From Acidobacteriota bacterium (GTDB lineage Bacteria; Acidobacteriota; CAIWXX01), in contig JBFMAF010000055.1 of the NCBI GenBank assembly GCA_040755995.1, forward strand, positions 128,001 to 192,000: a stretch of DNA of 64,000 bases, written 5' to 3'. Of the stretch, positions 18,635-29,733 are shown one piece after another; the stretch's first letter is position 1; the number at the start of each line of letters is the position of its first letter. The notes beneath the pieces are model-generated. The model did not search any database. It was not told the DNA's origin and worked only from the letters and a program-made list of their open reading frames with translations. The position numbers and the translations under genes were made by a program.

Positions 18635-20740
18635 TCACCCCTGGGCTCCCGCGGCGGAAGCCGCCGCCACCAACCACTCCAACATCTCCGTGTAGTCCAG
18701 GCGGGGATTGTATCCCTCGACGCGGAACCTGACCCGGCCTTTCGGATCTACGATCAGGGTCAGGGGTATTCCTTCTATCCGGAAGCGGCTTCCTGCTTTG
18801 GGATCCATCAGCACGGGAAACGTGAAGTTCTTGTTCTTGAGGTACTGCTCGACACGGCCTGCGGGCTCCTCTACGTTGATCGCCATGATTGCCATTGCAG
18901 GGTCGTTCTTGTGCTTATCGTAAAACTTCTGGAACTCAGGCAGCTCGCTCCTGCACGGAAGACACCAACTCGCCCACAGGTTCAGAACCATGGTCTTGCC
19001 GAGGAGTCCCTTCGACGTCATGCTCGCCTCGGTGCCAAACCGCTTCAGCTCGAATTGCGGCAGCGGCTCGGGAGCGACCTTGAACTGCTCCAGCACCTGA
19101 GCCTGTGACTCGCTCTTTGCGGTCCTCCTCAACGCGTCCACGTAGTCGCTCCAACCCAGCTCCCCGCCGGACTTGCGCAGATACATCTCCTTCAGAGCGG
19201 CCTCCGCCGCCGGCGAGAGATTCGATTGGCGGTAGGCGGCCTCGAGGTGGCGCTTCGCGGCATCCCAGTCCTTCTCTTGAGTGGCAAGAACGCCGAGCAT
19301 CCGGTGCCATTCGGCGGCGGAATCCGACGCCGGGAATGTCTCGAGCAGGCGTTGGAGCAGCGGCCCGGCCTCGCCGTACCTCCCGCTGTCGAAGTACGCC
19401 CGGGCCATCAGCTCGTCGGCCGAGTTGTCGACCCAGCGGCGCATGTCCTGCGGGACCTCGTAGCCCGGGGGCGTGTTTTCGAAAGCCGACTGCGCACGCC
19501 TGGCCCAGAGGACAGCCTTCTCAGGTACGCCTGCATCCAGGTAGCCTCGAGCGATGACCAGCCAGGTCCGCGCGGCCAGCGCGGGCGCAACAGGCGTGTC
19601 CCTGAGGTCGGCGATTTCCGACCAGCGATCGAGCGCCTCAGCCAGCTTCGTCTTGTCTCCAGCCTTGGTCAGGATCTGGACAAGCACATGATATGCGCGC
19701 GAGCGGAGCGGCGGCTCCGGTGTCGTCTGTATCAACGCGCGGGCCTTGGCTTCAGCCTCGGCGATGCTCCCCTGGTTCAGCAGGCGCATTGCCTCGTCCA
19801 GCCCCGAGTTCAGCTCCACTCGGGCCGTTGTCTCCGACTTCGGAAAGCGCCGCTTCAGCTCATCGAGAAGCGAGGCGGCGCGGTCCTTCTGGCCGAAGAG
19901 CTCGTAGGTTCCGATTGCCAGATCGAGGGAGTCAGCATCGCGGTCGCGCCGCGTGAGGAAGTCCTCCAGGTCGGAGAAGATCTGGTCGAGGCCGATGGGA
20001 GGCGGGTTCATCTGGCGAAGCACACCGTACTTCATCCTCCGGATGAGCACCGAATCCGGGTCGCACTTCTCCGCGGCCACCACCTGCCGGTATGCCTCTG
20101 CATAGGCGCCCACGGCGAGGTGGACGCTGGCCGAGCCCAACAAGGGAGAGGCCCAGCCGGGCGTCAGCTCGGCGGCTCGAGCGTACTCGTCGAGCGCCTT
20201 CTCCCGGTTCCCGCTCTTCTCCGAATTCCTCCGGTAAGCCTCCCCCAGCCAGTAGTGCAGCACGTCGCTCCGAGGTTGCCTCTCGATTGATTCGCGGAGG
20301 TACGCCTCGGCACCGGGGGACTTGAGCTGGAGGAGCAGGTAGCCTTTCATCGCGGCGAGCGCCGCGTTTTCGGGGTAGGCCTTCAGCCCTCTCTCGATTT
20401 CCAGCAGTGCTGCGTCGGCCCCCTTCTCTTCTTCCAGCCGCGCGCGCAGAACGTACAGCGCGGCGCGCTCTCCGAACCTCGTCTGGAACTCGGTGATCTT
20501 GGCCCTGAGCGCCTCGCCCTTGACCGAGTGAGAGACGCAGTACATATACTCGTCCACGGCGTCCGGTGGAGGCGCTTGGCTCTTCACGACCAACGGTTCC
20601 AGCAGCGCTGCTCCCATATCGTAGTGGTAGTTCAAGCGGAGCAACCGGGCGGTGGATGTAGCACTCTGAGTCTGTTGCGCATGGGACATGAGCGGTAGGA
20701 GGCACGAGATCAGGGCACTCAGCCCGAGGCGGGTCACCAT
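18635..20740 (-). CDS. exported TPR-repeat protein with C-terminal TlpA/redoxin domain
   Basis: Signal peptide ending SHA-QQ; multiple TPRs; VLNLWASWCLPCRSELP and IPLTLIVDPKG; start set at ATG 20740 (GGGAG RBS). Confidence 0.85.
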   Translation of the reverse strand: MVTRLGLSALISCLLPLMSHAQQTQSATSTARLLRLNYHYDMGAALLEPLVVKSQAPPPDAVDEYMYCVSHSVKGEALRAKITEFQTRFGERAALYVLRARLEEEKGADAALLEIERGLKAYPENAALAAMKGYLLLQLKSPGAEAYLRESIERQPRSDVLHYWLGEAYRRNSEKSGNREKALDEYARAAELTPGWASPLLGSASVHLAVGAYAEAYRQVVAAEKCDPDSVLIRRMKYGVLRQMNPPPIGLDQIFSDLEDFLTRRDRDADSLDLAIGTYELFGQKDRAASLLDELKRRFPKSETTARVELNSGLDEAMRLLNQGSIAEAEAKARALIQTTPEPPLRSRAYHVLVQILTKAGDKTKLAEALDRWSEIADLRDTPVAPALAARTWLVIARGYLDAGVPEKAVLWARRAQSAFENTPPGYEVPQDMRRWVDNSADELMARAYFDSGRYGEAGPLLQRLLETFPASDSAAEWHRMLGVLATQEKDWDAAKRHLEAAYRQSNLSPAAEAALKEMYLRKSGGELGWSDYVDALRRTAKSESQAQVLEQFKVAPEPLPQFELKRFGTEASMTSKGLLGKTMVLNLWASWCLPCRSELPEFQKFYDKHKNDPAMAIMAINVEEPAGRVEQYLKNKNFTFPVLMDPKAGSRFRIEGIPLTLIVDPKGRVRFRVEGYNPRLDYTEMLEWLVAAASAAGAQG

Positions 20741-20948
20741 GAGGTCGCTCCCGGCGAGGCTGCGCCTCGGGCCCACGAGCTGCTGAGGTACCCGCATGCT
20801 GGCCGAAGGCTTGTTCGAGCACCCGTATCGGTCCGGGGCGGCTGTCGGGAACGAGTACGCCGCCGGTTGGATGTGTTTATGACGCATCGCTCCGAGAAGT
20901 TCATACCATCGCAACATGTTTCTTCGCCTCAAGCCCTTCTGGTTCTCC

Positions 20949-22055
20949 TCAGTATACTCCCACGAGCGTGTCCTGGATGAGGTGATCCACGACGGCTCGC
21001 ATGTCGTTGGTCTGCGCGAAGACCTGGAGTTGCCGGTCCGCACTGGTTCCTTCTCTCAGAATCGTGTGCAAGTACGAGACCTCTCGTCGCGAGCCGAGCT
21101 GGTCCACTACGTCGTCAACGAAGTCGAGCAGCTCCATCATGAGACTCGCCGTGTCGACTTCCGTCCTCTTGCCGAAATCGATCAACTTGCCCGATATGCC
21201 GTATCTCAACGCTCTCCACTTGTTCTCCTCGATCAGTGACCGGCGGTACAACCGGAAGCCCATATTCTGAGAGTAGAGCTTGTAGAGCTTCGCGACGATC
21301 GCCTGGATGAGCGCCGCTATGCAGATCGTCTCTTCGAGACGCGTGGTCAGGTCCATGATGCGGAATTCGAGCGTTGGGAAGAACCAATGAGGGCGCACGT
21401 CCCACCAGATCTTCTTGCCATTGTCGACACAACCGGTTTTCATCAAGAGCTTCACATAGTTCTCGAACTCCGCCCAGGACTCGAAGTAGTCCGGGATGCC
21501 GGTTCTGGGGAACCGCCTGAATATTGAGCACCGTGTGCTCTTCAGGCCCGTGGGGCGTGCCAGCCAGAAGGGGGAGGAGGTGGTAAGGGCGAGGATGTGG
21601 GGGAGGAAGTAGCGTACGGCGTTCATGAGCTCGATCGAGACATCCCGGTCCTTGACGCCGACATGGACGTGCAGGCCGAAAATGAGATTGGCACGGGCCA
21701 CATCCTGCATGTCTTCGATGATTTCTTTGTAGCGGGCGTGGTCCGTCACGTCCTGGGTGCGCCAGTCTGAAAACGGGTGTGTGCCGGCGGCGACCATGCG
21801 AAGGTCCGACCGGCGCGCGAGCTGGTCGACGCACTGCCTGAGCAGGCGGAGGTCATCGCGTGCCTCCGCAACATTGCTGCAAATTCGCGTCCCGACCTCG
21901 ACTACCGACTGGTGCAGCTCCGGCTTGACTCGCTCGCCCAGCAGCAGCTTCCCCTCACCCATGATCGTCTCGATGTGGCTCCGCAGCTCCCGTGTCTCCG
22001 GGTCGACGATCTGGTACTCCTCTTCGATGCCAAGGGTGAACTGTTTGAATTCCAC
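20949..22055 (-). CDS. ybdK: carboxylate-amine ligase (GCS2/YbdK family, glutamate-cysteine ligase-like)
   Basis: FTLGIEEEYQIVD, AAGTHPF, FGLHVHVG, SSPFW, WWDVRPH, TLEFRIMD, ENKWRALRYG; GTG start after GGAGG. Confidence 0.9.
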   Translation of the reverse strand: MEFKQFTLGIEEEYQIVDPETRELRSHIETIMGEGKLLLGERVKPELHQSVVEVGTRICSNVAEARDDLRLLRQCVDQLARRSDLRMVAAGTHPFSDWRTQDVTDHARYKEIIEDMQDVARANLIFGLHVHVGVKDRDVSIELMNAVRYFLPHILALTTSSPFWLARPTGLKSTRCSIFRRFPRTGIPDYFESWAEFENYVKLLMKTGCVDNGKKIWWDVRPHWFFPTLEFRIMDLTTRLEETICIAALIQAIVAKLYKLYSQNMGFRLYRRSLIEENKWRALRYGISGKLIDFGKRTEVDTASLMMELLDFVDDVVDQLGSRREVSYLHTILREGTSADRQLQVFAQTNDMRAVVDHLIQDTLVGVY

Positions 22056-28304: not shown

Positions 28305-28928
28305 TCACACCCCCCTCCCTCTCTCCTTCGCTTTTTCAATCTCTACCGCCAGCTGGCCCAGGATCTCCCTCCACTCTTGCGCCGCCGGAGCCAACTGGTG
28401 ATCCAGGATGTCCGCCGTCTGCGTCCAGTCAGATCGCTCTCGCGCAGCCCGGATCGTGCGCAGCGTCCGGGACAGTTCCCTCATCTTGAGGTCGAGGCCG
28501 ATCACGTCATCATCGAGAGCCAGCAACGCCCGGGGGTAGCTCTCGTTCACTCCCTGGAGCATCTCCAGGAGGTTCTCCAAGCCGGCGAGCACAGGTGCGA
28601 GTGCATCGTCTCCCTCGGCGGTTCGGGACATGCGGTAGCTCAGGGCCACAGCGCCAATTCCTGCAGATGTCTCCAGCAGGAACTGTCGCATCAGACCGAT
28701 GCCGAGAAGGAGCAACGACTTGACGCGTGCGCTCTCGACACGGACCTCGTGAATAGCGTCGGTCGGAGTTTGAAGCAGCCCTGCATCGAGATGCGTCTCG
28801 GCACCGTCAACCAGAACACGGGAGATCGCGTGGCCCTCGTCCAGGTACCCCTCGGCTTCATATAGAAGCTCGAGCAGGCTGGCGGCGGAGCTCTCGTAGG
28901 GCCGGCCGTTCACAATCAGCGAAACCAT
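28305..28928 (-). CDS. hypothetical helical protein
   Basis: 207-aa ORF from MVSLIVNG, adjacent to galT; C-terminal DWTQTADILDHQLAP. Confidence 0.65.
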   Translation of the reverse strand: MVSLIVNGRPYESSAASLLELLYEAEGYLDEGHAISRVLVDGAETHLDAGLLQTPTDAIHEVRVESARVKSLLLLGIGLMRQFLLETSAGIGAVALSYRMSRTAEGDDALAPVLAGLENLLEMLQGVNESYPRALLALDDDVIGLDLKMRELSRTLRTIRAARERSDWTQTADILDHQLAPAAQEWREILGQLAVEIEKAKERGRGV

Positions 28929-28995: not shown

Positions 28996-29610
28996 CTACT
29001 TGTTCAGCGCCTCGTGAACCCGCCCAACCATCGCCGCCGACGGTGCGAGGGTCTTGTCCCCTTCGTCCTTCCACTTCGACGGGCATGCCTCGTTCTTCTT
29101 CTTGGAGAGGTATATGTTGGCCTTCAGCTTTCGTATCAGTTCCTCGACGTTGCGTCCGAGATTGTAGAAGTTGACCTCGGAATTCAGCAGGGTTCCTTCG
29201 GGGCTGATGAGAAACGCGCCGCGGAGCGCGAGGCCGGTCGCCTCGTCGTATACGCCGAACATGCGGCTGAGCTTGCCGGTCGGATCCGACCCCATCGGAT
29301 AACGAACTCCCGCCAGTTCCTTCTCGTCTCTCTGCCATGCCAGGTGCACGAACTTGGTGTCGGTACTGATCGTGATGAGCTCGGCGCCGAGCTTCTTCAT
29401 CCGCTCATACTGCTCTGCCAGAGCAGCAAACTCCGTCGCTCAAACGAAGGTGAAATCGGCAGGATAGAAGAACAGGATCGTCCACTTGTTCTGGGACTTC
29501 AAACTCTCCAGGTCGATCTTGCCAAAATCACCCGTCGCCGGGTTGTAGATTTCCAGCTCGAAGTTGGGCACGCTCTGCCCAATCCTCAAGATTGCCACTG
29601 GTTCCGACAT
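28996..29610 (-). CDS. ahpC: peroxiredoxin (AhpC/Prx1 type), selenocysteine-containing; in-frame TGA at 29440-29442
   Basis: Manual translation MSEPVAILRIGQSVPNFELE...WTILFFYPADFTFV-[TGA]-ATEFAALAEQYERMKKLG continues in frame into the 28996..29400 ORF (ISTDTKFVHLAW, ALRGAFLISPEG, EACPSKW); RBS AGGAGGG upstream. Confidence 0.9.
29408..29428 (-). promoter_or_regulatory. putative bacterial SECIS hairpin
   Basis: mRNA UGCUGCUCU-GGC-AGAGCAGUA: 9-bp stem (one G-U), G-first apical loop, starting 11 nt after the UGA. Confidence 0.75.
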
Positions 29611-29733
29611 GTCATCTCCCTCCTAATTTCTCGTAATTTACATCCCACCGCCGTTCCATCGATCGCTAATGATAGCATCCGCGTGAGGCAAATCCAACCG
29701 CAGCCGCGGGCATCGACGTTCGCGCGGCGCTGC

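Follow-up and report, generated by a model that had tools for sequence, protein, structure and literature searches.

The window, the whole 64-kb stretch of Acidobacteriota DNA analysed here (64,000 nucleotides), holds on its minus strand a peroxiredoxin gene that is interrupted by a single in-frame TGA. Translation from the ATG at 29610 to the TAG at 28996 gives 204 codons, and the sole internal stop is the TGA at codon 57 (29442–29440), in the context FFYPADFTFV-TGA-ATEF. The table-11 list of open reading frames gives the 134-aa C-terminal part only (28996–29400). A first-pass annotation had already described both the truncated entry and the complete 204-aa frame, and our translation agrees with it on both points. 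The features of the locus are as follows.

28996..29610, minus strand: full peroxiredoxin coding sequence, 204 aa with the UGA read through, Prx1/AhpC-like fold (translation; Pfam PF00578; predicted model)
29440..29442, minus strand: in-frame TGA, codon 57, at the peroxidatic position of P50-x3-T54-x2-U57 (translation; related loci)
29408..29428, minus strand: predicted bacterial SECIS hairpin with a 9-bp stem and GGC loop, within the AALAEQ codons (consensus scan and cross-species conservation)
29221..29223, minus strand: Arg130, position of the presumed conserved catalytic arginine (invariant in the alignment)
29083..29085, minus strand: Cys176, resolving cysteine position in EACPSKW (related loci, database homologues, AhpC structures)
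29619..29624, minus strand: AGGAGG, Shine-Dalgarno-like sequence 8 nt upstream of ATG 29610 (sequence)

The read-through protein matched the AhpC/TSA domain (PF00578) with 121.7 bits against a cut-off of 26, and it contains the PxxxTxxU motif with the UGA in frame and aligned to the Cys of homologues. A structure model of the monomer, built from a 33-row alignment with Cys substituted for Sec, had a pLDDT of 90.3; its best match was Salmonella AhpC (1n8j, TM 0.85, rmsd 1.6). Cys176 is the only Cys of the protein and, in an alignment with AhpC structures, matches their C-terminal Cys; Arg130 is what we take to be the catalytic arginine. As judged from the alignment and the model, the fold, Arg130 and Cys176 are intact. 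The GGLG and YF motifs were absent in a scan of the 204-aa sequence. The promoter scan returned no promoter-like sites, and the terminator scan two terminator-like sites within the coding sequence, near chance level. Directly downstream lies an open reading frame of 206–228 aa (28305–28925, minus strand) with no Pfam or NCBIfam match.

The genome collection contained 276 relatives of the gene, and the best 80 were analysed. TGA occupies the codon in 76 of these 80 loci and TGC or TGT in the other 4, and no TGA-bearing locus has another internal stop. Cys and TGA thus share the same aligned codon, as was to be expected from the earlier claim that the TGA replaces the peroxidatic Cys. TGA carriers span about ten phylum labels; the closest named loci among the best 80 are Acidobacteriota assemblies with 76–81% identity. 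The resolving Cys, said in the first-pass annotation to be kept, is Cys in all 80 loci and in all of the best 120 of 2449 database homologues. A second, partly overlapping set was drawn from 40 phylum relatives plus the host genome (G000) and comprised 30 loci, with G025 included in the tallies. It contained 20 Cys rows and 10 TGA rows, the latter from 9 genomes that all have selA; the TGA form was found in none of six selA-less relatives (4 further matches had no locus). In the larger set selA was present in 70 of the 76 TGA-carrier genomes (69 above the cut-off) and had no match in 6, whose completeness is not given. Since 34 of the 40 phylum relatives also have selA, its co-occurrence with the TGA form discriminates weakly.

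The residue pair at the catalytic site of the best 120 of 2449 database proteins was C-A in 112, W-A in 4, C-P in 3 and R-A in 1. The Ala that had been noticed in place of Pro after the catalytic residue also occurs in all 80 related loci, the 4 Cys carriers included, and five PrxU-type TGA relatives keep Pro (U-P). The observation therefore stands, but adaptation to Sec is ruled out as its cause: by these alignments, Ala is a trait of the subfamily and not of Sec. Among the best 120 of 2449 database hits, identity at 95% coverage or more stayed at or below 73%; genome DNA holds relatives at 76–81%, which fits TGA forms missing from protein sets. The four proteins whose catalytic residue reads Trp (P0008, P0051, P0101, P0113) probably represent TGA forms that gene callers have mistranslated (codons unchecked). 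Many subfamily members start with an N-terminal CC motif (L024, L045, L054, L057, L084, P0002-P0121), and 60 of the 120 database proteins have two or three Cys within their first 12 residues, a stretch in which the window's protein lacks Cys.

The GGC loop of the hairpin, 3 nt long, lies 20 nt downstream of the UGA, and the free energy of the fold is -11.3 kcal/mol. In the available text of PMC13188914 the bSECIS consensus is given as a loop of 3–9 nt with G among the first two positions, a stem of 4–16 bp, a spacing of 16–37 nt and an MFE of at most -7.5, and the hairpin lies within all of these quoted limits. As background, the same scan passed 180 of the 2064 TGAs that terminate long frames and 241 of 3000 TGAs picked at random (8–9%), and about 2% of genomic TGAs had a hairpin as stable as this one. 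Compared with dinucleotide shuffles of the local sequence the fold was unremarkable (z -0.6 to -1.8), so that the strong evidence is its conservation across species.

Among the best 80 of 276 relatives, the hairpin scan passed 75 of 76 TGA loci and none of the 4 Cys loci. In the 30-locus set a hairpin was detected in 9 of 10 TGA and 1 of 20 Cys loci, the sole Cys exception being L108, a PrxU-type gene. At each of codons +5 to +10 one synonymous codon reaches a frequency of 0.97–1.00 in the 76 TGA carriers, compared with 0.55 on average and 0.84 at most for 47 comparable codons, the carriers being kin and not independent; an identical 18-mer occurs in 69 of them. The 4 Cys carriers also have AALAEQ here, but spell it with codons that disrupt the stem. 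As they still have selA and selB, loss of the hairpin tracks the codon. Loop variants of TGA carriers (GUC) match the G[G/U] consensus, and one change in the stem leaves a wobble pair; two-sided covariation was not found across these carriers, in which the hairpin is nearly invariant. We therefore predict a conserved bacterial SECIS at this site, which adds to the first-pass account. The 17-nt core forms an almost perfect inverted repeat, found once in the genome, and ATG 29400 starts the 134-aa frame; both would also suit a DNA operator or an attenuating hairpin in a gene whose products are fragments of 56 aa and 134 aa. We regard this as highly improbable, because the position and loop agree with the bSECIS model, loci with a Cys codon have lost the hairpin, a hairpin of different sequence stands at similar spacing in PrxU-type TGA genes, and the split would part the catalytic helix from Arg130.

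The first-pass annotation had also inferred a Sec-decoding host and named selA, selB, selC and selD as the genes to look for. Profile searches of the host genome (99.84% complete) recovered all four above curated cut-offs: selA (511 bits vs 268), selB (328 vs 242), selD (321 vs 125) and the tRNA-Sec gene selC (76 vs 47), with anticodon UCA. No tRNA genes were found in the window itself. The genome also has the RF2 gene prfB, and TGA is the commonest stop of frames of 400 aa or more, ending 2064 of 3517; thus, UGA recoding is site-specific and there is no genome-wide reassignment. Reading of UGA as Trp or Gly throughout the genome, or read-through without Sec at this site, might be seen in the 4 Trp and 1 Arg at the position among the best 120 database homologues, which are probably gene-caller codes (codons unchecked). 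Such a reading has very little to recommend it next to prfB, TGA usage and a tRNA-Sec with UCA, and an enzyme with Trp as its peroxidatic residue would be inactive. As for a pseudogene or sequencing error, a TGC/TGT-to-TGA change inactivating an ordinary AhpC-like gene needs one base only, but its probability is negligible, since the same TGA is shared by 76 of the best 80 of 276 loci and hence is not a sequencing error, and downstream synonymous sites are frozen in TGA carriers only.

Two other genes of the genome have an in-frame TGA. The selD gene (G000:C42:88264-89187, L008) carries one in DCAG-U, with a 6–7 bp hairpin 17 nt downstream that has the same GGC loop as the peroxiredoxin and just fails the -7.5 kcal/mol cut (-7.4). 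The other encodes a homologue of protein-disulfide oxidoreductase (PDO) and the AhpF N-terminus, with CQFC and U-P-Y-C (G000:C24:88393-89043; L134:1489-2139). It scored 285 bits against a cut-off of 185 on TIGR02187 and has its own SECIS-like hairpin, and is likely a second selenoprotein of the genome. A TGA-bearing formate dehydrogenase was not detected with TIGR01591, whose 3 matches, all below the cut-off, contain no stops.

From the comparative evidence, the gene very likely encodes a full-length 204-aa AhpC/Prx1-type peroxiredoxin with selenocysteine at peroxidatic residue 57. By analogy with SelB-SECIS-directed insertion in the bacterial Sec pathway, as outlined in the accessible part of PMC1794560, SelB with Sec-tRNA(Sec) would bind the GGC-loop hairpin and outcompete RF2. 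With Pro50, Thr54 and Arg130 holding it in place, the Sec57 selenolate would then reduce H2O2 or alkyl hydroperoxides, as in typical 2-Cys peroxiredoxins. These enzymes form an inter-subunit bond, and the selenenic acid may likewise join Cys176 from the partner subunit in a selenenyl-sulfide, the intermediate proposed in the first-pass annotation. The NADPH-TrxR-Trx system could reduce this bond, and the Sec-containing PDO is a further candidate. Apart from the inter-subunit link, the proposed chemistry draws on the available portions of PMC7231847 and PMC8533274.

The TrxR and Trx genes of the host are adjacent on contig C51. AhpF, presumably the partner of AhpC, had no full-length match over the cut-off in the genome, which contains separate TrxR and PDO pieces only. 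No redox partner was found next to the gene among the window neighbours with Pfam and NCBIfam. Farther away, a long open reading frame of up to 802 aa (18635–21043, minus strand) shows, on visual inspection, TPR-like repeats; its C-terminus is a thioredoxin-like WCLPC domain with a weak PF00085 match. Recycling of the peroxiredoxin by the Sec-PDO in a selenium-to-selenium relay appears unlikely here. As an obligate partner the Sec-PDO was rejected: strong matches with one TGA (E<1e-40) occurred in just 9 of 76 carrier genomes, 1 further carrier genome had a strong match without a stop, and neither family-level relative had one (TGA position unchecked).

The gene is the only AhpC-type peroxiredoxin of the genome, in which three distant Cys hits (25–29%) also occur. 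Among the neighbour clusters of 84 loci, each named from one representative, are those of a flavodiiron protein, with a count of 18, of a Fur-family regulator and of desulfoferrodoxin, with 13 each, and of rubrerythrin, with 9; related Nitrospirota contribute part of these counts. This gene context supports a putative role in oxidative stress.

Concerning family placement, the protein scored below the cut-offs of both NF040737 (PrxU; 179.7 bits vs 270, with the match beginning at profile position 33) and TIGR03137 (AhpC; 191.4 vs 272), as did the four clade members tested likewise. The PrxU-type positive controls L111, L127 and L129 reached 421, 402 and 379 on NF040737, and control L106 scored 304 on TIGR03137. 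In a quick tree of 110 rows the protein falls into an 84-row clade (SH-aLRT 96) adjoining an AhpC, and PrxU-type rows form a separate group (SH-aLRT 99); the deep branching order is unsure, with long branches meeting near AhpC. The founding report on such enzymes is said to be that of Sohling et al. in 2001, on PrxU of Eubacterium acidaminophilum. Like PrxU, the window's protein is of Prx1/AhpC type, with Sec as the peroxidatic residue, FTFVU-x-TE and a downstream hairpin. It differs in lacking the Cys-bearing N-terminal extension of about 30 aa, in its separate clade and in its SECIS sequence. In the PrxU-type L111, L114, L127 and L108, Thr replaces the C-terminal resolving Cys; the first three, all TGA forms, bear a Cys in the N-terminal extension, possibly an alternative route of resolution. 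L108 combines a Cys codon with an intact SECIS-like hairpin, which suggests recent reversion.

The AhpC family (TIGR03137; Salmonella 1n8j/4ma9, Enterococcus 5y63) gave the best sequence and fold matches (E 2.5e-46). The C-terminal resolving Cys176, Arg130 and the AhpC fold are those of typical 2-Cys Prx1/AhpC proteins, and the lack of GGLG and YF is likewise shared with AhpC. The window's protein differs from AhpC in having U for C followed by Ala for Pro. We consider it probable that the protein belongs to a distinct AhpC-proximal selenoperoxiredoxin subfamily (FTFV-U-ATEFAALAEQ), apart from PrxU and outside both NCBIfam models. A literature search, covering mostly articles outside subscription and their main texts, found no study on this subfamily.

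In the quick tree the 4 Cys loci take two positions. Their independent origin was nevertheless set aside, since an AU test on 87 rows (without one duplicate and most of the outgroups) did not reject a single clade (p 0.185). When 120 database proteins (best of 2449) were added in FastTree, Cys and TGA labels interleaved and at least 5 changes were forced for TGA, with the codons of these proteins unseen, so that some of the C residues may in fact be Sec. The simpler reading would be that the identical SECIS arose once, with losses afterwards. Repeated Sec-to-Cys reversion with SECIS decay in hosts that still decode Sec seems somewhat favoured. The 2006 table in the available text of PMC1794560 lists 12 Sec-peroxiredoxins, with 5 Cys-to-Sec and no Sec-to-Cys events. 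Taken jointly, a widespread distinct subfamily with a SECIS frozen across about ten phyla, repeated reversion and a possible Se-Se relay can be put forward only tentatively.

Sec-peroxiredoxins, with their PxxxTxxU motif, belong to the established prokaryotic selenoproteins in the accessible text of PMC13188914. As far as this text and that of PMC1794560 describe the bacterial family (PF00578, TxxU/PxxxTxxU), our gene shares its domain, motif, in-frame UGA, bSECIS hairpin, Sec machinery and Cys homologues, with no definitional difference; the Cys forms here interleave among Sec forms. The class is thus already known, and the gene adds a member, not a new kind of system. Our results establish the selenocysteine trait for this genome and rescue a gene that stop-based callers split. 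The subfamily offers a compact natural SECIS, and its near-identical Sec and Cys forms lend themselves to comparisons of catalysis and over-oxidation. If it is indeed distinct and has undergone repeated reversion, it would provide natural pairs of Sec and Cys enzymes that are about 70% identical.
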